DNA from: a virus
Reading direction: 5' to 3' (one strand)
Virus record (IMG/VR): IMGVR_UViG_3300021057_000011
Span: 35,726-99,725 of that record
DNA: 64,000 bases
The notes under the pieces are model-generated. The model did no database searches. It was not told the DNA's origin and was given only the letters and a program-made list of their open reading frames with translations. Positions 35,387 through 52,180 of this stretch are shown in pieces. Position 1 is the stretch's first letter. Each line of letters starts with the position of its first letter. A program made the translations under genes and the position numbers.

Positions 35387-37263
35387 GCCGGCAAATAATC
35401 CGACGGCAGAATCGGCAGCTCGAGGGATTCGGGCGTGGCCCAGCCGTCCGCCGGCAGCACATCGGAATCCTTCACCAGCTGGTTGTAGACCTGGACATTG
35501 ATCGCCCAGCTCCACATCCGCTCGGTCCCGTCGATCCACTGCACGTTGAAGCCGTTTTGAGGTCCAAACACACAGCCCAGGGCAAAGGTCTCACCAAAGA
35601 CCTCGAGCCCGATCCGATCGAGGACCGGGCCCGCGCGCAGCTCCTCGTTGTTGTTGCCGCTGAACAGGCGGAGCGAATCGGCATGCAGCTTCTGCTTGGT
35701 CGCAATGCTGAGCCGATCCCCCAGGGCCAGCTGCTGCTCGAGCAGCTCGAGCAGGGCCCAGGCCTTTTGGTGCTCGAAGTTTTTCGTCTGCAGCTTTTGC
35801 ACCAGCGAGTTCTCCAGCAGCTCGCCGGAGAAATCGTACTCGAGCGAAAAGCGGCCGTGCACGATGTTTTCCAGCAGCTCGTCCTCGTAGGCCTCTTTGA
35901 CCTTTTCGATCATGCTGACGGTGGTGTGCAGAATATAGCGGTAGACCTTTTCCTCGCGGCGGGTGTTGCCATCGGCCTGCGCGGTCTCCTTGGTCAGGGT
36001 GATCGTCTTGGTGCCCTGGTCGTAATCGACGGCATCCGTGCGGGAGGTGGTGATCACTTCCGTGCTGCGCTCGGTGCGCTCGGTCTCGGTGATCACCTCA
36101 ACCCCGTTGCTGTCGAGCTCGCGTGTGCTCGTGCGGGTCGTGGTCGTGCCGTCGGAGCTCTGTTCGGTGAATTCGGTGGTCTGGCTCGTGGGGGTGCGCT
36201 CCGTGCTCGAGGTTGTGGTGCGCAGCCAGTTGCCGTTTTTGTCGTAGACCTTGGTTTCGTTGGTTTCGTTTAAGGGGCTGATGACGGTGCTGACGGTTTC
36301 CTGGCGGGCTTCTTGAAACTCCTGCTCGAGCTTGGCCAGCGGGTCGAGGTAGGGCTCTTCGCGCACCGTGGCCTCGACAAACTGATTGCCGTCGGGGTCG
36401 GTCTTGGTGGTGTAGACGTGGGTGATCTTGAGGTTGCTGTCGGGGTCGATCGTGACCTCTTCGACACTTTCGTCGGCACTCCCCTGGCTCAGAACCGTGT
36501 CGGTCTCGTTCGGCGGGGCCGGCTCCACGGTCGATTTCATTTCGTCGTTCCAGTAGGCCAGGTCTTGCTCGACGGTGCTGGGTCCGATGTACTGAACGAA
36601 GCGCATGCCGGTGATGGTGGTTAGCTCGATCGGCTTGCCGAAGACCTTGGGGTTGGTGGTGTAGACCTGCCGCCGGGTTTTGCTGCGGCGGGTAGCGGTC
36701 CCGGTCGGGCCCACCAGATCCTCGGGATCCGCCAGGGTGGTTTCGACCACCACCGTTTCGGTCTGGCTGCTCGGCGGCAGGGTCCGGGTCGTGCGCGTGG
36801 AGGTGCGCGGGAACTGCTTGGGGCTGACCTCGGAAATCGAGGTGGTGTGGGAGCCGCGGTTCTGCTGCGGCCCGATGGCTTCGTAAAAGGCCTGCAGCGA
36901 GCCGTAGGGGTTGGTCCCGTTGATCAGGTGGTATTCGTTGTTGGGATCGAAGACCGTCTCGTAGGTTTCCTTGACCCGGGTGCCGTCGGACTCGGTGTAG
37001 GTCTTTTCCCGGATCGTGGTGATCGAGCCGTCACGGTTGACCCGCTCGGTGGTGGATTCACGGGCCTTGCCCAGGGCCTCGCCCGTGAGCCAGCTGCGGG
37101 TGCGGATCTCGAAGCGGGGCTGCTTGGCGGAAATGGCCTTGACCGGCAAGATAATGCCGCCGAGGGAGACCACGCAGCCGTTGTACTGGGCCAGCAGCTC
37201 CGCGTTGCGGGCCTGCTCCTCGGACGTGAGGTCGAAGTAGTACTTGCCGTCGATCAGGGCCAT
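35383..37263 (-). CDS. Thr/Glu-rich tail protein with beta-hairpin-like repeats
   Basis: Recurrent T-x-T...DG/DPDG turns; tail-tip cluster. Confidence 0.6.
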   Translation of the reverse strand: MALIDGKYYFDLTSEEQARNAELLAQYNGCVVSLGGIILPVKAISAKQPRFEIRTRSWLTGEALGKARESTTERVNRDGSITTIREKTYTESDGTRVKETYETVFDPNNEYHLINGTNPYGSLQAFYEAIGPQQNRGSHTTSISEVSPKQFPRTSTRTTRTLPPSSQTETVVVETTLADPEDLVGPTGTATRRSKTRRQVYTTNPKVFGKPIELTTITGMRFVQYIGPSTVEQDLAYWNDEMKSTVEPAPPNETDTVLSQGSADESVEEVTIDPDSNLKITHVYTTKTDPDGNQFVEATVREEPYLDPLAKLEQEFQEARQETVSTVISPLNETNETKVYDKNGNWLRTTTSSTERTPTSQTTEFTEQSSDGTTTTRTSTRELDSNGVEVITETERTERSTEVITTSRTDAVDYDQGTKTITLTKETAQADGNTRREEKVYRYILHTTVSMIEKVKEAYEDELLENIVHGRFSLEYDFSGELLENSLVQKLQTKNFEHQKAWALLELLEQQLALGDRLSIATKQKLHADSLRLFSGNNNEELRAGPVLDRIGLEVFGETFALGCVFGPQNGFNVQWIDGTERMWSWAINVQVYNQLVKDSDVLPADGWATPESLELPILPSDYLPA

Positions 37264-39899: not shown

Positions 39900-42800
39900 T
39901 CAGCGGTTCGATTTTTCGGAGCTGAAACCCGGGGACGGCACGGTCCGTGTCGGGGGCTTGTCCACGGCCTGCTGAATCTGGTCCTCCGTCGCGTTCGGGT
40001 TCGACAGCAGGGTGACCAGGGTGTCGAGCGACTGCAGGCCCTTCTCGAGATGGGCCTCATAGTTCTTGGTCGGGGTCGACGGCTTGCCGGCCATCATCGA
40101 GAGGACCTTGAACATCTGCTGCATCAGCTGGACCTGGGTCCGGACATCGGATTTGACCTGGTTATCTGAGGCCGACTGGACCTGACGCTGGGTGGCCTTG
40201 TCGTGTTCTTTGGTGCGGCGGTTGGTGGCGGCGAGCTCCATGGCCGGCTGGTGATTGACCGTCGCCATGCTGTAGTCGAGGTCGTCGCTGACGACCCGCT
40301 TGCTGGCGGCCGAGCGGCGGGGGATGCCCGAGCTTTGTGTCCCACGCAGAGCGGCTGCACCCAGGGTGGTGTTGCGCGGGTCGCTGTACAATTCGCGCTG
40401 TTTTCCGACGATTTCGGTGATTTTCTGGGTGTCCTTGAAGCCCACCGCGGCCGCGAATTTTTCCACGGCTTTGGTGAAGAGATCCGCTCCCTTGAGGAAG
40501 AGGGTTTCGGGCTTGAGGCCGGCATTCTTGAGATCCGGGCGCAGCAGATCGGCCTTGGCATCGGCGTCGGCCTGGATCCGGGCCAAGGTCCCGCTGTCGA
40601 GCGATTTGCGGAACTGCTCGAAGCTGAGATGCGCCCGTTCTTTATCCGGTGCGAGGGTCCGCAGGTTCTCGATTTCGGCCTTGACCAGGTCATCGACAAT
40701 TCCCCGGCGGGTCTGAATTTTCGCTTGCTGATCCTCAAGCTCAGTGTCGGGGGCGGTCTTTTGGAGGCGGCGGATAAAGCTTGCAAACGATTTGGCGTGT
40801 TCTTTGACGAAGGGCTTTTCCTTTTCTGAAATCCCGCCAGCCTTGATGTCGCCTAAGGCATTGCCGAAATCCGTGACTTCCTTGAGGATGTCGTCCCGCT
40901 TCGCACCGGAGGCAAACAGCGTATTGATTTTGCGCGTCGTTTCAAACAGCTCCCCGATTTGGATTGCCTTGTTGACCGGTTCAGGCAAATTGTCCGCGCC
41001 AGTCTGGGCCCGGTAAATCGCCCGGAAAAGGTTGTTACGAGATTTGATCCGGAACTCGTCCCGATCCGCAATAGCCTTGGCGAGCTCGCGCTCTTCTTTT
41101 TTGAGCTCAACAGCCTGCTTGGCCAACTCGTTGATTTTGCGACGGGAATTGACCTCGTCGTTGAGCAGGAACTGGTATTGGCGTTGCGCGTTGCTCAGCC
41201 CCTCAGCCAGGTCCTCGGCATTCTGCCGCTCGATCTCTGCCTGTTCGTCGGGATTGACCGCAACCAGATCTCCAATCTGGTACTCCCGGGCCAGGGTGCT
41301 GCGCAGGCCGGCTTTGCGCCGGGCGGTCTCGTTGCGATCGGCGATCCGATCGAGGATCCCCTGCTGCTGCTGTTCGAACTGCAGCCGGCGGAGCTCGGCG
41401 TCCCCCTGTTCCTGGATGATGCTCACCCGGGTCAGGTCCCGGTCCGCGGCGCGCAATTCCGCCCGTGAGGTGGGGACCGCACTCGTGCTACGAATGAGGG
41501 GAACTTGCTCAATCGCGATTTGGGTCCGGATCTGGACCGCATTCTGCTCCTGCAGATTGGCGACCTGGCGCAGCAGGTCGATGTCTTTCTGCCGCAGCTG
41601 CAGGAGCTTGTCGTAGGATCCCAAGGCCTGCCCGACGGCCTGGTTGAACTCGTTCACCAGCTGGGTGTACTGGTCTGTCCCAGGCAGGGCGGCATCCACC
41701 AGGCGGCTGAGGGCCCGGACCTGCTGGATTGTCCCTTCGAAAGCGCGGCCGCTGTCGAGGCTGTCGAGCTGCTGCAATGAACGGGTCACCGCATCGATCG
41801 CCGTGAGGGTGTCCGACAGGACCGCGGTCATTTCCCGGGCCAGTTCCGTGCGGCCGCGCAGGGCCTGCTCAGCGGCGATGTCCGCCTGCTCTTGCCGTAG
41901 CTTGGCCTCCTTAGCCTCGGGACTGTCGGCCAGCAGGGGGTTGGAAAAGACGTTGGCGTTGATCTTCCGGATTTCGCTGGCGGCATCCAGTGGGGTGATT
42001 CGCTTCTGGGCCAGGTCGGTCTGGATTTCCTCGAGCTGCTTCTGGGCATCGTCGATCTGCTGCTGGGTCAGGTTCGAAATCTGGATGCCGGCATTTTTGG
42101 ATTTTTCACCCACGTCGTTGATGACCACACCGAGGGCCTCGAGGTTCTTGCGCAGCTGGTTGGATTCCCCCGCGGCCTGGCGCAAGGTGTTGATGAACTT
42201 GCTGATCGTCGTCGCACCGCTGGCGCCTTTGACATTGTCCTCCGGCCGCAGGGCCTTGAGCAGCCGGTCGAGATCCTTGAAGCCGGCCTCTCGGCCTTCT
42301 TCGGAATCGGAAGTGATAGCGCGCGAGATGATGGTCTGAAACTCTTTCAGGGTTTCAGGGTTTTCGATTTTGAAGCGCGATTGCAGATCTCCCAGGGCCT
42401 TGATCTCGCCCTTTTTGTTGGTGTCCTGCAGCTGCTTTTTCAGCTTGGCCTGAGTGTCCTGATTTTCAATCAGGATGGTCTGGAAGGTGTTCTGCTCGCT
42501 CAGCAGGCGCTCGACCCGGCCCAGGACGATGGGTCCGCGGGCCCGACGGTCTTCCTTTTTCTTTTCGCGCAGCAGCTCAGCGCCCTGCCGGTCTCCGCGA
42601 GAGGCTGTGAGCAGAATTTGTGTGTCGATGTTGTCACTGATCTGCTTGTCGCGAGCGGCTTCCTCTTCGATGACCGTGACCCGTTCATGGCCCTTCTTGG
42701 CGGTTTCGGTCTGGGCTTTGAGCTTGGCGACCAGGGCCTCTTCCGGGGCCAAGGCATCGCTGATCAGCTTGAGGTCCTTGAGCACGGCTTCCAGTCGTTT

Positions 42801-45800
42801 GGCTTGGGCTGTGGCGGCTTCGTAGTAGCCCTTTTCAATCGCCTGGTTTTTCTGCAGGGCGTTGATGCGCTCCTGCTCCTCTTTTTTCAACCGCTCGACG
42901 GCGAAGTAATACTGATCAACATCGGACGCGCGGTCGGCGGCCCGCCCTTTTTCGGCATCTGGTCCGATGAACGTCGGCACTTCGGCCAGGTCCTCACCCA
43001 ACTGCTCGGTAGCTTTCTTGACCCCGCGGCGGGTCAGGAACTGGGCGGTTTGAATCTCGGGTGCCAGGCTCCGTTCTGCTGCAGCCTTGGCTCGGGCTTC
43101 CTCTGCACGGGTCTTTTCAAGCAGCTTTTCGAAAACGGGGATGGTCTTGCGCAGCTCTGCGGGGGTTTTGGCTCCGGCCACGAGATCTCCCAGGTCAGAC
43201 TCGCCCGTGATTTTCTTGATCTGTTCAAACAACTGCGGCGAAACATTCCCGGTCAGCCGACGCAGGCGCCGTTCGTCCACGTTGGGGAACAAGGTTTTGT
43301 CCAGATCACCTAGAACTTTCCTGGATGTGACTTCTGCTAAAATCAGTCCACCGAATCCGCCAATGGGTCCTAGACCGGGAATAGCAGATCCCGCGATAGC
43401 ACCACCAACCCCGGCCACATTTGAAAGGGTGCCTATGGGTATAATCGGGGATTTACGAGTCAGCTGGGCAAACTGTTGCAGATAGGGATTTGAAATCTGG
43501 GGTTCCCCTACCAGTTCCCCTGTGGAGGCGATGACATCTTCCGCCACACCGGCAGCCAGGGCTAAAGGACCTGCCCCCCGAAGTTTCGAAAGACCGGCAA
43601 AAGCAGCTTCGCCCCCGGCCTGCAGAAAACCGCCCAACCCCCTCAGCGCAGCTCTTGGGTTTCGAATCAGCTGGTTGGCTTGCTGAACACGGGCACTGAA
43701 GGGGACACGGGGTTTGGGGGCTGTCAGCAGGTCATCGTACAGTCCCAGTCCGCGCAAGCTGTCCGCCCCCGCGACCGCGCGTCCTACCCGTTGCACCGTT
43801 GTCGGGGTTTGGGTTTTAAGGGCATCGATGAGCTGCAACCCTTTTGCGCCGACAAAGGCTCCTCCGGCGATACTAGCCGCGCGCAGCCCCAGTCCCCCGA
43901 TCTTTTGGAGCCCTTCCCCGGCAAAACGAGCGGAATCGATCGCAGCATTTCCGGTGCGATCGGTGAACAGTCGGTTGCCGGCAAAGAGCCGGGCGACATT
44001 TTCCGCCGAGGTGCGGGAGTAGGAATCCGCTTCGTCCGTCAGGTACTGGTCCTTGCCGGCGGAATCGGCCGACAGGGCGGCCAGAAGAGAGACCAGGCCC
44101 AGGGCTCCGCCTTTGGAGAAGACCGTGCTGGCGACCTTGGGATTGGCGAACAGCGCGGGAATTCCCAGCGCCAGGCCGCCGATCGACAGGGCCGTGCCTG
44201 TGCCGTCGGGCAGACCGCCACCCTTGAGAAAGGCATCCAGCCCCTTGCGCAGCTCATTGAGCGCACTCAGCGGCTTGAAAATAGCCGTTGCGAAGACCGC
44301 AAAGCCGCTGGTGAGTTTTTCGAGAACAGAAAAGCCCGTGTTGCCGACGCTGACGAAGGCATTGGTCAGACCCAGGAAGGGCCCTTCCTGGGCACTTTCG
44401 CCGAAGGTCTGACCAAAGGCCTTGCCGATGTTGTTGAGAATGCCCAGCGTCAGCTGCTCGGTTTCGCGCAAGTTCTCCCCGAGCTCCTTGAGCCGGAGCA
44501 CCCGCCCGGTGGTCTGAATTCCTTTGCGCAGGTCGTCAAAGGCCCCGATCCCTTCAAAGACCGAGTTGACCAGCGAGAACTTGAACACGCCGGCGGCCAC
44601 CGAGCCAAAGGCGACCACTTCTGCACTCAGCTGGCGCACAATGCCAATGCCGTCCTGGAGCTTGTCGAGCCCCGGCCCGAAATTTTTCAGGATCGCCTCG
44701 CCGATGTTGAGTCCCGCGCGCAAGGACGAGGCGGCCTTGAAGGTTTCCCCGCCAGCGAGGCCCTTGGCGATGTTGCGGTTTTCAAAGGGCAGGGCATGCA
44801 GGGCCGACAGGCCCTTGGGAATGCCTGCGGCGGCCTTGGCGCTGATCAGGCGAGCAGCCAGCGAGCGCTCGAGCGAAAAGCCCTTTTCGACCGCCCCTTT
44901 GGCAGTGAAATTGTCCAGCACGCCGCCGAAGTTTTCCACATCTCCCAGCAGAGCCCGCTTGGCCTTCTTGCCAATCGCGGAATCGATCCCGATCCGAGCG
45001 ACGTTTCCGACCAGGCCGGTGGCGAAGTCGCCAGCCCGTTTGAGCACAAAAGGGGCGATGCCAATCGCGAAGACTGCGGCGATTTGGGCCTTGAACTTGA
45101 CCATGAACTGGAGGAACTCGAGGGCGCGCTTCGTCAGCCCGCCGAACAGGCCGCCGACGTCCTCTTTGAGGTAGCTGGCGAAGGCCTTCGAGGCGGCCGA
45201 GGCGGATTGGTCCGCTTCGCCGAAGGCCCCAGCAAGGGTATTGGCTCCTTCGGCGGCCTGGACAAGGAAATTCGTGACTTCCTGGAACGAGCTCTCGGTG
45301 GACAGCCGGATGATGGTCTGGAGGAAGTCCTGGACGTTGGACGAAGCGCCTTTGAAGGTTTTTCCCAGCCGCTCGACGGTGCCGGCAAAACGCAGCTGGA
45401 TGACTTTCTGGAGGGCCGAGACGGCTCCCTCGGAATCCTGGGCCGAGCCGGAAAAGCCGAAGGTCTTGAGATCCTCGCGGGAAATACCGTACTGGCGCAG
45501 GCGGACGAAGCGATTCTGGGTGGCGGCGATGAAGGCGTCCGTGGCCTGGTCGGGGGTCGTCCCAAAGGCGGCGGCGAGATCGACGATTGATTTGACCACC
45601 GAGCCCTGGTACTTCGGTCCCTTGGTGATGTCCAGATTGCCGGTCAGCGATTGCTGGGTGAAGCCTTCGGCTGCCAGTTTGTTGATCGTTGAAATCAGGT
45701 CCTTGCTCTCGAAAAAGGGCACTTCCAACGCAAAGGGCTGGGCGAAGCCTTCGAAAACCTTCTTGGCTTTTTCGGCTGTACCCAGCGTCGAGCTCAAGGT

Positions 45801-48512
45801 GGTGAGGAAGACTTCCAGCTGGGCGTTGGCTTCGATAAAGACCCCGGAAATGGCCGCGCCGATCTGCGACAGGGCATAGGAAACTTCCCCGATCAGGAAC
45901 AGATCGCCCACAAAGGTCGAAAACAGCGAGGCCGGTTCCGAGGCCCCCATAAGGGCATGCAGGGGTCCGCGGCCTTCGGGTGATCGTCCACCCCCACCGC
46001 CTCCGCCCCTGGGTGTCTTGGGCCCGCCAGGGCCACCAGACGAGGGGACAGTACGCCGGCGACCCGGCACAGGCAACCCGTGGGCTTCGCGTGCGGCGAG
46101 ATTTTCCGCGGCAATGGCGGCATCGAGAATCTGCTTTTCTTCAATCCGCCGCTGCTGCAGTTCCGCCAGGCGGGATTCCAGCCGGGATTTGTGGATCGGA
46201 TCGGTGACTTTGTCCTGGACCTCTTTGACCGAGCGGATATCTCGTTCCGTCAGTGCCAGTTTGCGCGCGGCCGCATGGAATTTCGGGCTGTTGGCCGAGG
46301 CCGCCACCGCGGCCGCCATGCCTTCCTCAAAGCCTTCCTTGACCTGTTTGCGCAGGTCCTTTTTCAGGTGCGCGGTGTACTTCGAGACATCGATCTGGCT
46401 GAGCTCGAGCAGCGCGGATTGCTTGTCCCGGACTTTGGAGATATCCCCCTGACCAAAGCGGGCGAACAGGCGCTCGAGAGAGGAGCGATTTGTGTCACTC
46501 AAGGAGCCACTCGGGGCTCGGAGAAGACCGTTGACGACCGGTTCCAGGCCTGCCAGTTCCGGAAGTTGGCTGGCAACCCCTAACCGAACGGACAGAGCGG
46601 AAGGACTGCCTTTTCCTTGCAGCTTCGCTTGTGCTTGGGCAAGTGGTCCAGAAGCACTCGGTGATGTCGCCAGTCCTTGTTCGAGTTCATCCAGAAAATC
46701 GTCAGAAAGCTCATTGATTAAACCACCAATGTCGGAAACACCCTGGACTTCGCGTTTGGCGATACCGTAAAACGAATTCAGTTTGCCCCGCAGGGTTTCG
46801 CGATTGACTTCAATGCTCTCATCCGGTGCCTGTGTTTTGAGGAGGTTTCTGAATTCACGGTATTGACCCACAACTTCTGCGGCATGGGTTTTGGTGAGCT
46901 CATCGTCCGAAAAGCGCCCCATCAAGCCCGCAATTTGGGTTTTGTACCGCATCGAGGTGTCAGTGGTCGTATCTTCTTTAAGACCGTAGTACTTGAGGGT
47001 CGGAGCAGTGAGGGTTTGGAAGAGCTCAGACAGTGCAGCGACCCGTGATGTGACATGGGGAAAATTGGGATCGGCATCGGGTTCGATTTTTGCCCAGGGG
47101 CGTCCAAAGGAGCGCATCAATCCCAGGAACGCACTCTGATCTTCGGGGCTCAGGGTATTGTCCGGGCGCGCAACCAGCTGTTTGAGGAAGGCATCGACGC
47201 CCGTCAGCAATTCTGCAATATTTTTACGCGGCGGGCGATTGCCGCGCCCACCCCCAGGCCCTACAACCCCCCCAGACGCAAAATGGCCTCGCTTGAGCAA
47301 TTCCTGGACCTGTCCCTGGTTGAGGACCACCTCCCCGGGATGCAGAATTCCCAGCAGACCCGGACCCTGGGAGCGTTTTCCCGGTCCCAGAATCCGGTTG
47401 ATCCCACTGTGCGGGCCCAGGTTGCTGGCAAAGCCCCCGATTCCCCCTACCCCGCCACCGCTAGCGAAGCGGCCAAATCGTTTCTTGAAGTTCGGGTGCT
47501 CGATCGCCTGCTTGACGATGCGCAGGCCGCTGTAGTCATCCAGTGACGAGACGAGCTCCGGGGCCCGGTTCACCATTGCCTGGAGGGCGAAGCGGGACAG
47601 GGATTTCTGTAGCTCGGCGTTGCCGGTGAACGGTTCGTTGTTGGTCAGGATCAGGGGGTTGGACTTGTCCCGGAAGAACTGGTTCAGGGACTGGGCATTG
47701 CCGCTCGAGAGCACATGGTAGGCATCGCGGACGAGATCGACCTTGCGGGCCGGGTCGTCAGTGAGGTCCCGGTAGTATTCGTTCAGGGCCTTGTGGTATT
47801 CCTTCGACATCGCGACGAACTTGCCCTGGGCCTGCTTGGCGACCGCGGCATTGTAGCTCGGGGCATTGGCCTTGAAGTGTTCCGCGACGTTGTCGGCAAA
47901 GCGGTTGCGCAGCGCGCCGTAGTAGGCGACCCGGAAGCCCGGGTCGGACCCGACCTTGGTGCCCAGCTCCCGCAGCGAGGCCGGCATGGGGGTAAACTCC
48001 CCGGTGGGTTTGGGTGTAGGTTTGGGCGCCGGCCGAATGTCCGGACCATAGGTCTGCTGAACTTGGCGGCTAAGGGCTTGTTTTTCTTCAGAGCTCAGAC
48101 GCTGGATCGCTGCATCCCGCTTTTGGGTGTAGAGTGGCGATGGGGTCTCGCGCGAAGGCAGAGGCGTGCTGGTGCGAGGCCGGCCAATGTTGGGAGCTCC
48201 GGAGTCCGGGATAATGTTGAAATCCCGTCGCAGGTTCGTTTTTTTGGCTCGACGAGCAAGTTCAGCCTGAATGCGTTGCTCTTCTGCTTCTTTGCGAAGT
48301 GCATGCTGACGTAAGAGTTCCTCTTTTTCAACACGCCGCATATCACGGCCTGTCCAGGCTGTGTAGTCTTTTCCGGTCAGGCGCTGAAACTCTGCCCGCA
48401 AATCTCGGTGGATTTTGTGGGCCGGGTCGTCCGGGATATTACGTGCAAACTCCAAATTGTACTCAAGCGCTTTGAGCTCGGTCCACAGATAGTCGATACG
48501 GGCGATGTCCAT
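39900..48512 (-). CDS. Tape measure protein (2870 aa)
   Basis: Follows the chaperone pair; tape-measure domain EANAQLEVFLTTL...AAAFG...RLRQYGI near aa 890; long Ala/Gly-rich helical body. Confidence 0.92.
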   Translation of the reverse strand: MDIARIDYLWTELKALEYNLEFARNIPDDPAHKIHRDLRAEFQRLTGKDYTAWTGRDMRRVEKEELLRQHALRKEAEEQRIQAELARRAKKTNLRRDFNIIPDSGAPNIGRPRTSTPLPSRETPSPLYTQKRDAAIQRLSSEEKQALSRQVQQTYGPDIRPAPKPTPKPTGEFTPMPASLRELGTKVGSDPGFRVAYYGALRNRFADNVAEHFKANAPSYNAAVAKQAQGKFVAMSKEYHKALNEYYRDLTDDPARKVDLVRDAYHVLSSGNAQSLNQFFRDKSNPLILTNNEPFTGNAELQKSLSRFALQAMVNRAPELVSSLDDYSGLRIVKQAIEHPNFKKRFGRFASGGGVGGIGGFASNLGPHSGINRILGPGKRSQGPGLLGILHPGEVVLNQGQVQELLKRGHFASGGVVGPGGGRGNRPPRKNIAELLTGVDAFLKQLVARPDNTLSPEDQSAFLGLMRSFGRPWAKIEPDADPNFPHVTSRVAALSELFQTLTAPTLKYYGLKEDTTTDTSMRYKTQIAGLMGRFSDDELTKTHAAEVVGQYREFRNLLKTQAPDESIEVNRETLRGKLNSFYGIAKREVQGVSDIGGLINELSDDFLDELEQGLATSPSASGPLAQAQAKLQGKGSPSALSVRLGVASQLPELAGLEPVVNGLLRAPSGSLSDTNRSSLERLFARFGQGDISKVRDKQSALLELSQIDVSKYTAHLKKDLRKQVKEGFEEGMAAAVAASANSPKFHAAARKLALTERDIRSVKEVQDKVTDPIHKSRLESRLAELQQRRIEEKQILDAAIAAENLAAREAHGLPVPGRRRTVPSSGGPGGPKTPRGGGGGGGRSPEGRGPLHALMGASEPASLFSTFVGDLFLIGEVSYALSQIGAAISGVFIEANAQLEVFLTTLSSTLGTAEKAKKVFEGFAQPFALEVPFFESKDLISTINKLAAEGFTQQSLTGNLDITKGPKYQGSVVKSIVDLAAAFGTTPDQATDAFIAATQNRFVRLRQYGISREDLKTFGFSGSAQDSEGAVSALQKVIQLRFAGTVERLGKTFKGASSNVQDFLQTIIRLSTESSFQEVTNFLVQAAEGANTLAGAFGEADQSASAASKAFASYLKEDVGGLFGGLTKRALEFLQFMVKFKAQIAAVFAIGIAPFVLKRAGDFATGLVGNVARIGIDSAIGKKAKRALLGDVENFGGVLDNFTAKGAVEKGFSLERSLAARLISAKAAAGIPKGLSALHALPFENRNIAKGLAGGETFKAASSLRAGLNIGEAILKNFGPGLDKLQDGIGIVRQLSAEVVAFGSVAAGVFKFSLVNSVFEGIGAFDDLRKGIQTTGRVLRLKELGENLRETEQLTLGILNNIGKAFGQTFGESAQEGPFLGLTNAFVSVGNTGFSVLEKLTSGFAVFATAIFKPLSALNELRKGLDAFLKGGGLPDGTGTALSIGGLALGIPALFANPKVASTVFSKGGALGLVSLLAALSADSAGKDQYLTDEADSYSRTSAENVARLFAGNRLFTDRTGNAAIDSARFAGEGLQKIGGLGLRAASIAGGAFVGAKGLQLIDALKTQTPTTVQRVGRAVAGADSLRGLGLYDDLLTAPKPRVPFSARVQQANQLIRNPRAALRGLGGFLQAGGEAAFAGLSKLRGAGPLALAAGVAEDVIASTGELVGEPQISNPYLQQFAQLTRKSPIIPIGTLSNVAGVGGAIAGSAIPGLGPIGGFGGLILAEVTSRKVLGDLDKTLFPNVDERRLRRLTGNVSPQLFEQIKKITGESDLGDLVAGAKTPAELRKTIPVFEKLLEKTRAEEARAKAAAERSLAPEIQTAQFLTRRGVKKATEQLGEDLAEVPTFIGPDAEKGRAADRASDVDQYYFAVERLKKEEQERINALQKNQAIEKGYYEAATAQAKRLEAVLKDLKLISDALAPEEALVAKLKAQTETAKKGHERVTVIEEEAARDKQISDNIDTQILLTASRGDRQGAELLREKKKEDRRARGPIVLGRVERLLSEQNTFQTILIENQDTQAKLKKQLQDTNKKGEIKALGDLQSRFKIENPETLKEFQTIISRAITSDSEEGREAGFKDLDRLLKALRPEDNVKGASGATTISKFINTLRQAAGESNQLRKNLEALGVVINDVGEKSKNAGIQISNLTQQQIDDAQKQLEEIQTDLAQKRITPLDAASEIRKINANVFSNPLLADSPEAKEAKLRQEQADIAAEQALRGRTELAREMTAVLSDTLTAIDAVTRSLQQLDSLDSGRAFEGTIQQVRALSRLVDAALPGTDQYTQLVNEFNQAVGQALGSYDKLLQLRQKDIDLLRQVANLQEQNAVQIRTQIAIEQVPLIRSTSAVPTSRAELRAADRDLTRVSIIQEQGDAELRRLQFEQQQQGILDRIADRNETARRKAGLRSTLAREYQIGDLVAVNPDEQAEIERQNAEDLAEGLSNAQRQYQFLLNDEVNSRRKINELAKQAVELKKEERELAKAIADRDEFRIKSRNNLFRAIYRAQTGADNLPEPVNKAIQIGELFETTRKINTLFASGAKRDDILKEVTDFGNALGDIKAGGISEKEKPFVKEHAKSFASFIRRLQKTAPDTELEDQQAKIQTRRGIVDDLVKAEIENLRTLAPDKERAHLSFEQFRKSLDSGTLARIQADADAKADLLRPDLKNAGLKPETLFLKGADLFTKAVEKFAAAVGFKDTQKITEIVGKQRELYSDPRNTTLGAAALRGTQSSGIPRRSAASKRVVSDDLDYSMATVNHQPAMELAATNRRTKEHDKATQRQVQSASDNQVKSDVRTQVQLMQQMFKVLSMMAGKPSTPTKNYEAHLEKGLQSLDTLVTLLSNPNATEDQIQQAVDKPPTRTVPSPGFSSEKSNR

Positions 48513-48902
48513 TTAGCCCCCTTTCAGCATCCGCACGAGATCCATCGGCGAGACCGCGTTCTGCTGCTTGGCATCGAAGGGCGTGAGGTTGGCCAGCAAG
48601 GGCTTGATGTCGTCGGCATGGTAGGCCGCGCGGGTGAAGAGCATGAGATCAGCATCGCGTCTGCGCACATGTTTCCAGGTTTCCTCGAAGATCAGCAGGA
48701 TTTGCCTGGGAGACAGGTTGTCCGCGATTTCATCGGCCCGACCATGCCCGTGCATGGCCAGAAACGCGATTATATGTTCCCAGGTAAGGGCAGGTCCGTC
48801 GCCGGCGGGTTGGGCAGCGGGCTTTCGGGCGGGCTTTGCGGAGCGGCCGCGAGCGGGAAGAACCTGCCGACCTGATCCATCACCCGCGGCCCGGTAAAAT
48901 TT
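48513..48902 (-). CDS. -1 frameshift extension of the tail assembly chaperone (gpGT-like)
   Basis: The -1 frame overlaps the end of the chaperone ORF and ends adjacent to the TMP start. Confidence 0.75.
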   Translation of the reverse strand, partial: KFYRAAGDGSGRQVLPARGRSAKPARKPAAQPAGDGPALTWEHIIAFLAMHGHGRADEIADNLSPRQILLIFEETWKHVRRRDADLMLFTRAAYHADDIKPLLANLTPFDAKQQNAVSPMDLVRMLKGG

Positions 48903-49279
48903 TGGCGCCAGATCACATCCAGGGCACAGATGGCGAGCGCGTGGTCCATGTGGTCGAGCCAGTCCGCCCCTCGGTCCACGCTTTTGCACAAAATCTCACA
49001 CAACGGGTCGATGAACTGCAGGTAGAACTTTTCCAGGTGCAGAACGAAGAAGACGTTCATGTCCGAAATCTTGCGGCCGTCCTCGGTGTAGTGGATCTCG
49101 TCCCCGTTGATGGTCTTGATGTCTTCGTACATCTTGCCCACCAAGGGCCCTAAGACCTTGGTCTTCGTCAGGCTCCAGGGCTTGATTTTCACCACGTTGC
49201 CGGCGAGGTCGTTGAAGCTGAATTCACGAAAGACAGCGTCGTACTTCGTTTCGTCGATGCCTTGGATCGGTTCGGTCAT
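48770..49279 (-). CDS. Tail assembly chaperone (gpG-like)
   Basis: Between tail tube and TMP, with the frameshift signal. Confidence 0.8.
   Translation of the reverse strand: MTEPIQGIDETKYDAVFREFSFNDLAGNVVKIKPWSLTKTKVLGPLVGKMYEDIKTINGDEIHYTEDGRKISDMNVFFVLHLEKFYLQFIDPLCEILCKSVDRGADWLDHMDHALAICALDVIWRQNFTGPRVMDQVGRFFPLAAAPQSPPESPLPNPPATDLPLPGNI
48896..48902 (-). other. Slippery heptamer A AAT TTT
   Basis: In-frame X XXY YYZ (codons CAA AAT TTT, residues Q-N-F); shifting gives ...YRAAGDGSG.... Confidence 0.7.
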
Positions 49280-49357: not shown

Positions 49358-50593
49358 TTAGGCCGGATTCAGGACCATGTAGCCGAGGGGGTAGACCACA
49401 TCGGCCAGGGTCAGCGGAGCGTCCGGGGCCTCGGAAATCTCGACCACGGTGTTGAAGGGCAGGAAGCCCGAGGCCACGTCGACAACGTTGCCGTCAAACA
49501 GCAGCGCGACGTTCTCGGCGGTGACTTCCTCGATCGTGGTCGTCAGCGTCATCTGCTTGCGGACCAGAATCTTCTTGTCCAGGGTCTGCGGGATGCCGGC
49601 GAGATGCTCAAGGTACTGCTGCGGGCTCTGCATGCCACCCAGGCGGACGTTGCCAACGTCGTAGCGTGTCACCGGCAGGCCACGGCTGAGGGCCAGGGCG
49701 GTGTTGTTCGGCGTCAGGTAGAGCTTGTAAACCCCGGCCGTCAGGGTGTCCTGACGGACCGTAACCGGGGCCAGGGTGATCGGGTCGTTGTCGATCCGGA
49801 TGTAGCAGAGCGGGTTTTCCGCGTGCGCGGGATTGCTCGAGAACAGGACGTCCAGGCGCAGCTCGGAGCCGACCCAGTCGGTGGGCTGGAACTGGAAGTC
49901 GACGGTCTCGGGCGTGGCCGTGCAGCGGTGGAAGCGGGCCTTGAACCAGCGATCATCCGGCATCTGGTGCTCGAGCTCGGCGGTCCACTCCATGGTCGCC
50001 TGCTTTTTGCCCAGGTTGATCTGCTTGGCCGAATCGGACTTGTAGGAGCCGAACACGGACACGGTCATGCCGGTGTTGACCTTGAAGTTGTTCGAGCCGG
50101 TGGCACCGGTGTTGACGAACATGATGTTGCCGGTGGCGAACTGGAGGTAGTAGTCGTCCAGAGTCGCGCCGGCACTGGTGTTGCGCAGCAGGGCGTTGGT
50201 GTTGATGTTCTCGATCGTGGAGCCGGCGGCGAAGGCGTAGTTCGTCGCCGGGGTCGCGGTGATGTCCACCGTGCCGGTGCCGGAATTGTAGGCCCAGGTG
50301 CCGGAGACTTCCGCCGGTGAGCCGGTGAAGCCGCTGTCGGTGCGGTCGACGGTCATGACCAGGGTCGTGCCGACGGTGCTCACCGCCGTGACCTGCATCA
50401 CTTCGGCGATGTAGGTGCCGGCATTGTCCGGATCCGGGGTGAGCAGGCGAATGAAATCGTTCACCCCGATGGCTTCGTTGGCGCCCGCGCCGGAATTGCC
50501 TTCGAGGTTGTTTTTGGAGGTCGCGGTGACGGTCGAGCTGGACGTGGAAATGGAATCGGCCAGGGTCGAGGCATACCTTGCTTTGGGGATCAT
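49358..50593 (-). CDS. Major tail tube protein, apparently circularly permuted
   Basis: Contains both canonical halves (KLYL..RYDVGN..LEH..EEVTAENVALLFDG and INLG..ELEH..TDW..LDVL) but in reversed order. Confidence 0.8.
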   Translation of the reverse strand: MIPKARYASTLADSISTSSSTVTATSKNNLEGNSGAGANEAIGVNDFIRLLTPDPDNAGTYIAEVMQVTAVSTVGTTLVMTVDRTDSGFTGSPAEVSGTWAYNSGTGTVDITATPATNYAFAAGSTIENINTNALLRNTSAGATLDDYYLQFATGNIMFVNTGATGSNNFKVNTGMTVSVFGSYKSDSAKQINLGKKQATMEWTAELEHQMPDDRWFKARFHRCTATPETVDFQFQPTDWVGSELRLDVLFSSNPAHAENPLCYIRIDNDPITLAPVTVRQDTLTAGVYKLYLTPNNTALALSRGLPVTRYDVGNVRLGGMQSPQQYLEHLAGIPQTLDKKILVRKQMTLTTTIEEVTAENVALLFDGNVVDVASGFLPFNTVVEISEAPDAPLTLADVVYPLGYMVLNPA

Positions 50594-51094: not shown

Positions 51095-52180
51095 CTATAA
51101 GCCTCCGGGGAGCTGAAGCTGGGCCTTGGCGAGCCAGGCCGGATCGAGAGCAAAGCCGTAGAGGTTGTTGCGGGGGGTTTTGCGCAAGGCCTGCAACTTG
51201 GTGAGCATGGGTTTGTCGAGGTACTTCAGCGTGGCCGCGTTTTTGGGCAAAATCTGCTCGAGCTGACGCACCAGCTGCAGCTGGGCATTGCTGGTGATCG
51301 TTTTGCGCAGCTGCAGGGGGTTGGCTTTGGCCTTGAGGTGGGCTTGAACGTCGGCTTTGAGCTCGGCCTCGATCTGGTCGGCGACCAGCTGCTTGAGCAG
51401 CACCGGCAAAGTCCATTTGCGCCCCTTGTAGGTGATCAGGGCCTCCGTGCGCAGGATTTTTTTTAATGAGGCAGCGTAGATGCGGGTGGCCTGGGCCCAG
51501 TTGCGCTTGATCGCGCCCTCGAAGGGGTGAAAGCCTACGGTGTAGGTTCGGCCGTCGAGGCCCTGGAAGGGCGTGACCAGCTTGCGGGTGAAGCGGTTAC
51601 CGTACTCGATGTCCGAGGCGATTCGGAAGCGGCGGGTTGGGATCCCCAGCTGGTGGAAGGGTTGCAGCGGCCAGCCGCGGAAGGCCAGCGTGTTGTTGCC
51701 GTCGCGTGGCGCGCGGTAGGGCTGCGGGATCGTGCTCTCGAGATCCACCGCGCCGGGACCGAGCTGCAGCTTGAAGCGCGACGGGACGGCCAGGGTGCTC
51801 GAAAGGGAGGTGGTGCTGCTGCGAAAGGCCGCGGTCACCGCTTCGTGGGGCCGGAACAGGCGAGGACCGGCCTTGGTGAGGTTGCCATCGGGACCGATCT
51901 GCAGGGCATTGCGCGCGCGCAGGCCCGAAGTCATGCCGCCGGAGGCCAGGGCCTGCCGCACACTTTTGGCCAGGGCCTCGGCCAGGTTTTTCTCGAGTTC
52001 GGTCACCAGCCGGCCTACCAGGTCCTCGATAAAGGCCGGCATTTTTTGGATCCCCGTCTCCCGGCGAATGACAGCAAGCTCGGCCTTGATCAGGTGGCGG
52101 GGGAAGCTGTAGACAAAACTGCTGGAGCCCCCGTCGGCGGATTGGGGGCTGTAAAAGCGATAGCCCTTCGGCTCGGCCAT
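51095..52180 (-). CDS. Oversized tail-completion/neck protein (HK97 gp10-like)
   Basis: Position; IEYG...HPF motif; very basic. Confidence 0.5.
   Translation of the reverse strand: MAEPKGYRFYSPQSADGGSSSFVYSFPRHLIKAELAVIRRETGIQKMPAFIEDLVGRLVTELEKNLAEALAKSVRQALASGGMTSGLRARNALQIGPDGNLTKAGPRLFRPHEAVTAAFRSSTTSLSSTLAVPSRFKLQLGPGAVDLESTIPQPYRAPRDGNNTLAFRGWPLQPFHQLGIPTRRFRIASDIEYGNRFTRKLVTPFQGLDGRTYTVGFHPFEGAIKRNWAQATRIYAASLKKILRTEALITYKGRKWTLPVLLKQLVADQIEAELKADVQAHLKAKANPLQLRKTITSNAQLQLVRQLEQILPKNAATLKYLDKPMLTKLQALRKTPRNNLYGFALDPAWLAKAQLQLPGGL

Follow-up and report, generated by a model that had tools for sequence, protein, structure and literature searches.

Evidence for a circularly permuted major tail tube protein in an uncultured siphophage and its relatives

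The window analysed here is a stretch of 64,000 nucleotides (positions 35,726 to 99,725) of the virus record IMGVR_UViG_3300021057_000011, a metagenomic IMG/VR virus contig of 101 kb with a completeness of ~80%, and the tail genes described below are all encoded on its minus strand. The gene assigned to the major tail tube protein (49358..50593, minus strand) is a single frame of 411 amino acids (aa) plus stop, hereafter P0001, whose translation matches PHROG 807, the family named 'major tail protein with Ig-like domain', with an E value of 6.8e-9; no other gene of the record matches that family. Its 3' end is separated by 78 nt from an open reading frame (ORF) of 169 aa (48770..49279, minus strand), to which the role of tail assembly chaperone (G-like) was assigned on the basis of its location between the tube and tape measure genes and of the syntenic ORFs of 149-169 aa found in related loci. 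Chaperone codon 126 holds a candidate -1 frameshift site (48896..48902, minus strand), a slippery heptamer that reads A AAT TTT and has the register X XXY YYZ; from this heptamer the -1 frame remains open to position 48513, abutting the tape measure ATG at 48512, and would encode the T-like extension of a G-T fusion (48513..48895, minus strand). The tape measure gene itself (39900..48512, minus strand) codes for 2870 aa, of which aa 867-1152 are 36% identical to part of a 2612-aa ORF that lies downstream of the permuted tube gene in a related locus (L001). This order of tube, G-GT chaperone and tape measure is the classic siphophage arrangement, and the slot before the chaperone and tape measure genes is also held by the tube homologs found in loci L001, L011 and L006.

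P0001 starts with an outer insertion module (aa 1-175; 50069..50593, minus strand) that bears the new N-terminus and was delimited through alignments to P0016 and P0017, two relatives with the usual chain order; it comprises a beta-barrel (aa ~1-132) and a D2-like part. There follows the canonical C-terminal tube half (aa 176-268; 49790..50068, minus strand), with neck strands, beta5-beta8 and the invariant pair D239-W240, as located by BLASTP with P0014, P0015, P0016, P0017 and P0020, by PHROG 807 positions 167-251 and by YSD1 residues ~190-266. Next comes a junction (aa 269-285; 49739..49789, minus strand), placed by a rotated alignment and by low pLDDT at residues 280-286, where the ancestral C-terminus would meet the ancestral N-arm. 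Beyond it lies the canonical N-terminal tube half (aa 286-366; 49496..49738, minus strand), containing beta1, beta2, the hairpin, beta4, helix H1 and the invariant triplet L328-E329-H330, and supported by BLASTP matches to residues 13-86 of relatives, by PHROG 807 positions 59-99, by Chi/YSD1 residues 31-101 and by structure models; the long beta-hairpin (aa ~321-350) has low pLDDT in the full-length monomer model. Finally, neck strands and a C-terminal tail (aa 367-411; 49361..49495, minus strand), corresponding to P0017 ~86-120 and modelled with pLDDT 76-90 over aa 371-400, appear to return to the outer module and carry the new C-terminus.

A sequence-only reading of this gene had proposed a circular permutation relative to the order of Chi/YuA-type tube proteins, and the strings on which it relied were found where that proposal places them. 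The beta-rich insertion (DDYYLQFATGNIMF...VSVFGSY) occupies aa 146-184, the string INLG..WTAELEH..TDWVGSELRLDVL is second in order at aa 192-250, the presumed linker NDPITLAPVTVRQ spans aa 269-281, and DTLTAGVYKLYL..RYDVGNV..YLEH..TTIEEVTAENVALLFDG lies C-terminally at aa 282-368, with residue 282, taken as the start of the C-terminal half, beginning at nt 49750.

Comparisons with relatives and with known tube families place the two tube halves in exchanged positions. With BLASTP, P0001 residues ~301-375 matched residues ~10-86 of its relatives and residues ~77-269 matched their C-terminal parts, and two matched stretches were likewise obtained by phmmer in each of six relatives of canonical order. 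Over the 256 positions of PHROG 807, P0001 aa 183-266 corresponded to positions 167-251 and aa 338-378 to positions 59-99; this swapped order against PHROG 807 and the relatives was observed in P0001 and all of its close homologs, with family matches as strong as 1e-15 to 7e-18 for P0012 and P0008. A profile of the permuted family reached the PDB chains 8vhx_G (E value of 1.8e-4) and 6xgr_A (2.7e-4), the solved tail tubes of Chi and of YSD1 (YSD1_22), respectively, and here too profile positions 295-363 fell on chain residues 31-101, and positions 91-240 on residues 126-266. PHROG 807, Chi and YSD1 were thus all matched in swapped order rather than collinearly, and the C-terminal part of P0001 corresponds to the canonical N-terminal half rather than to an unrelated domain; both outcomes favour the proposed permutation, which is borne out at the level of sequence.

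Doubling and rotation of the sequences restored continuity. When canonical sequences were doubled, the permuted-family HMM crossed their junction as one domain: in doubled P0017, HMM positions 60-360 aligned to residues 194-468 with 110.6 bits, in comparison with the two domains of 72.5 and 42.0 bits obtained with single P0017. Conversely, P0001 rotated to begin at residue 283 aligned with P0017 in one BLASTP segment (13-380, E value of 3.4e-16), and the rotated family HMM matched P0017 as one domain (30-380 to 22-380, 112.9 bits). Each tube half occurs once in P0001. We estimate at about 90% the probability that P0001 serves an uncultured siphophage as its major tail tube protein and is, relative to the Chi/YSD1-type (PHROG 807) tube, a true circular permutant.

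The rotated alignments also indicate where the chain would have been opened and closed. On P0017, the new termini of P0001 fall near residues 110-125, immediately ahead of the barrel of that protein and within the outer insertion module, in agreement with the proposal that the gene was reopened inside the insertion domain; the region of these termini (tail and barrel start) contributes almost no score to the rotated HMM alignment, and given this weak similarity the cut site is approximate. Consistent with this placement, P0001 aa 77-170 align with the insertion residues 82-165 of P0016, and the whole outer module with P0017 ~120-290, so that the module found mid-chain in the canonical relatives stands at the chain start in P0001. 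At the other site, canonical C-termini map to P0001 ~269-272 and the canonical start methionine to ~271-276, which implies that the old termini were fused almost head to tail and that the 'linker' consists mostly of the old N-arm. The claim that a linker joins the old termini hence stands as to the place of joining (aa ~269-285) and fails as to an added spacer, since the ancestral C-tail and N-arm appear to be fused almost directly. The junction motif IDNDPxTLQPV is kept in close homologs and variable in distant ones.

Structure models of P0001 were generated with AF2 on only 12 sequences, with a pLDDT of 74.8 for the full-length protein; the core (aa 176-385) was modelled as a single domain (pLDDT 78.7, pTM 0.71) with the strand order beta5-8, linker, beta1-4, H1. 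An exhaustive search of ~48,000 PDB chains with sequential aligners returned mostly tube-fold proteins as neighbours of the core model (Dit, tail tubes, Hcp and tail terminators; Z 4.3-5.4, rmsd 4-6 Å, ~100-110 aa), and Foldseek against the PDB returned nothing significant for either the full or the core model. The sequential alignments to tube-fold proteins run in order across both halves of P0001, which indicates that, in broad outline at least, one half could stand in for the other in shape. On these grounds the protein could be read as a collinear tube with an N-terminal decoration domain, the apparent swap reflecting an internal pseudo-symmetry of the four-stranded halves, and model aa 195-375 does match whole tube or Hcp domains in order (6xgr_A 12-272, Z 5.3; Hcp1 8z7k_A, Z 5.2). 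Nevertheless, we consider a collinear chain highly improbable, since the sequence matches are both significant and half-specific: the half with the LEH, DKK and ENxAL motifs matches only canonical N-halves, and the DW-G half matches only canonical C-halves. Moreover, in the permuted and the canonical layouts alike the C-half comes after the insertion module, the doubling and rotation tests each yield one continuous alignment, and the score of YSD1 against the core model (Z 5.0-5.3 with sequential aligners, despite sequence homology) is low for a collinear homolog. Such low scores are what a rewired topology would be expected to give under sequential aligners, and fall short of proof of the permutation.

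Regarding the outer module, the P0001 barrel (aa 6-132 in this comparison) is similar in structure to an inserted domain of the Acinetobacter phage Mystique tail tube (9n71_B 104-179; Z 6.0, rmsd 1.9 Å, 72 aa), and matches spanning model residues 1 to 411 were obtained with 8vjh_A (Chi tail tip, Z 6.8) and 8rk3_o, which in the model suggests that both chain ends share one domain. Structural similarity of the barrel (aa 1-132, window positions 50198-50593) extends to domains in the tail of GP4 and the capsid of VP1, and to the N-terminal barrels of HerA. A homolog search with P0017 gave mostly partial matches to the barrel stretch of that protein (aa ~126-200), with about 20 phage proteins of unrelated length sharing ~70 aa at 45-58% identity; the outer beta-barrel seems to be a mobile module.

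The permuted order is shared by other phages. A word-index search combined with an exhaustive phmmer search over 1.84e9 representatives identified 11 full-length homologs collinear with P0001 (P0002-P0012; 27-50% identity, E values of 1e-28 to 1e-124), as well as two fragments with the permuted order (P0013 and P0019), and an IMG/VR scan added two further loci with relatives; the search for homologs of the same order, suggested by the sequence-only reading, thus recovered these together with relatives of canonical order. A 774-aa candidate, P0018, was rejected as a false match due to chitin-binding and low-complexity sequence. Searches in other collections retrieved no relatives, as tblastn of P0001 against 50,697 GenBank phages gave no match, and none turned up when GTDB genomes and JGI metagenome contigs were scanned for patterns. 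Likewise, P0001 had no Pfam match, and phmmer with P0001 alone against the PDB returned only noise; the permuted order leaves the gene unannotated by collinear tools such as Pfam and Foldseek. Precomputed matches to Pfam PF27730 (UCP028589) are listed for P0012, P0014, P0016, P0017 and P0020.

The start and the whole layout of P0001 are retained in P0002-P0012, which come from independent samples and collections, and this argues that the layout is not an artefact of assembly or gene calling. The possibility of an assembly chimera, or of a recent and non-functional fusion of two damaged tandem tube genes, has nothing direct in its favour beyond the metagenomic origin of the record, and is barely credible considering that the same order and start recur at 27-50% identity in different samples with conserved synteny, that the P0001 frame is intact with its core motifs conserved, and that the record contains no further PHROG 807-like gene. 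The synteny is seen on the contigs encoding P0002 and P0012, where an SPP1-type portal, a ~352-aa capsid protein, five small head-tail genes, the tube, the chaperone and the tape measure follow the order of the window; in L001, the capsid, the tape measure and two other head-tail proteins are detectably homologous to those of the window. Tape measures beside permuted tubes measure 2870 aa in the window, 2852 aa in L011 (12054-20612) and 2612 aa in L001 (10165-18003), these being the three complete loci. By BLASTP, the window tape measure aligns to that of L001 only over aa 867-1152 (644-941 in L001), and its N-terminal ~860 aa displayed no BLASTP similarity to the L001 protein. In a tree of the 12 permuted proteins, included in rotated form, and only six canonical sequences, the permuted proteins constitute one side of a branch with support of 90/86, which as a sequence-based result is consistent with a single permutation event.

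Six relatives with the usual order were identified with phmmer (P0014-P0017, P0020 and P0021; 179-383 aa, whole-library E values of 1e-12 to 1e-3), the strongest over the 1.84e9 representatives being P0014 (1.2e-12), P0015 (2.2e-11), P0016 (8.2e-10) and P0017 (9.5e-9). P0021 matches PHROG 807 in order and over its full length (E value of 8.7e-47), and a profile of the six aligns in order with the Chi/YSD1 tubes (10-262 to 7-262, E value of 5e-19); from both results, the six represent the canonical order, and by sequence comparison they are the closest non-permuted relatives of P0001. Among them, P0017 (383 aa) holds all the modules of P0001, barrel included, and its alignment with rotated P0001 reaches from one end to the other. 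The canonical relatives also occupy the tube slot, with chaperone and tape measure genes following downstream; in contrast to the permuted loci, however, their tape measures are of 959, at least 952 (at a contig edge) and 1505 aa. No similarity was detected by BLASTP between the genes neighbouring the canonical relatives and those of the window, and consequently the permutation event is not datable by synteny.

The retention of residues and of gene position bears on whether P0001 forms the tube. E47 and D249/D250, next to W251, have been reported as conserved residues of YSD1 (PMC7385642). HMM alignment places YSD1 E47 at family position 326, occupied by Q in P0001 and by E in most members, YSD1 L49-D50-H51 at L328-E329-H330, and YSD1 D250-W251 at D239-W240. 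With the record ~80% complete, a further tube gene belonging to some other family could conceivably exist in the rest of the phage genome, and an ORF of 361 aa (51095-52180, minus strand) lies nearby, without Pfam or PHROG match, so that P0001 could in principle be a real yet accessory tube-fold paralog, such as a decoration protein or an initiator, with the tube itself formed by an unrecognized protein. We regard an accessory role as very unlikely: P0001, its permuted homologs and the canonical relatives all sit in the exact slot of the major tail protein, P0001 has kept the residues conserved in the YSD1 tube and, by prediction, its long hairpin, and no second PHROG 807 match occurs in the record. 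As to the 361-aa ORF, it sits two genes upstream of that for the tube, surrounded by small head-tail genes, and its counterparts by position in related loci are of widely different length, with 394 aa in L011, 230 aa in L001 and 259 aa in L006.

Taking P0001 as a permuted major tail tube protein, its architecture can be proposed by reference to the canonical chain, which runs from the N-arm through beta1-beta4, with hairpin and H1, to the inserted outer domain or domains and on to beta5-beta8. The P0001 chain would instead run from the outer module (1-175) to beta5-beta8 (176-268), through the junction (269-285) to beta1-beta4 and H1 (286-366), and end in the tail (367-411), and is expected to build the same eight-stranded sandwich. 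Six copies would form a ring around the tape measure protein, with rings stacking via the hairpin; both chain ends would lie on the tail surface, and the N-arm would be tethered at both ends. As for the origin of this layout, it most likely involved a tandem duplication of the tube gene, followed by in-frame fusion and trimming of both outer ends, and would have been a single event in the forebear of a small clade of very-long-tailed phages. That the old termini are joined almost directly agrees with this route. A duplicated intermediate was not found in the phmmer search of 1.84e9 representatives, where no relative exceeded 470 aa except the false match P0018, and the origin route is thus an inference.

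The N-arm of YSD1 is needed for assembly and polymerization. It may be that the permutation is adaptive and not neutral, surface termini and a doubly tethered N-arm altering the nucleation or locking of rings in connection with the extreme tail length of the clade, an idea that we find doubtful and offer only tentatively. Long tape measures do co-occur with the permuted tube (2612-2870 aa in three loci, against 959-1505 aa in three canonical loci), and their length would translate into a tail of roughly 400 nm if ~1.5 Å per residue holds.

Few building blocks of phage tails, pyocins, type VI secretion systems and other contractile injection systems are as conserved as the tail tube fold. A stable natural permutant acting as a structural tube protein would indicate that both the fold and its assembly tolerate rewiring of the chain, and would offer a natural test of what the free N-arm contributes; additionally, if both termini are exposed on the tail surface, as is possible, they could be useful for phage tail display or tagging. 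The permuted layout is common to a small clade of uncultured phages, and a published description of such a layout was not found for tail tubes: the papers retrieved when the literature was searched for permuted tail tubes dealt only with circularly permuted genomes, and the word 'permut' is absent from a review of major tail proteins (PMC8718954).

Among known systems, the closest resemblance is to the Chi and YSD1 tubes. Domain 1 of YSD1 is made of two four-stranded sheets with a long hairpin. P0001 shares with these tubes significant sequence homology, the LEH and D-W motifs and the gene slot, and, as judged from sequence and models, probably also the same building blocks, namely the eight-strand sandwich, the long hairpin, H1 and the outer domain, which in Chi/YSD1 stands between strands 4 and 5. 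It differs from them in that the collinear order of N-half, domain 2 and C-half is absent and replaced by the swapped one, with termini in the outer module and the N-arm internal; in that the C-terminal Big_1 Ig-like domain (domain 3) is missing, without Pfam match and with the chain ending at aa 411; and in the extra beta-barrel of its outer module. The tandem-duplicated tube proteins of T5 (pb6) and P74-26 (PMC8718954, PMC10034513) show that tube genes can duplicate and fuse in frame, and thus that the intermediate required for a permutation by duplication can occur; these proteins hold two complete tube domains and assemble into trimeric rings, whereas P0001 holds one copy of each half. A further precedent for a permuted topology in a core structural fold of phages is the major capsid protein of BPP-1, which has a topologically permuted HK97 fold (cited in PMC7385642); it concerns another protein, another fold and another assembly, that of the capsid, and the permutation proposed here would affect the tail.
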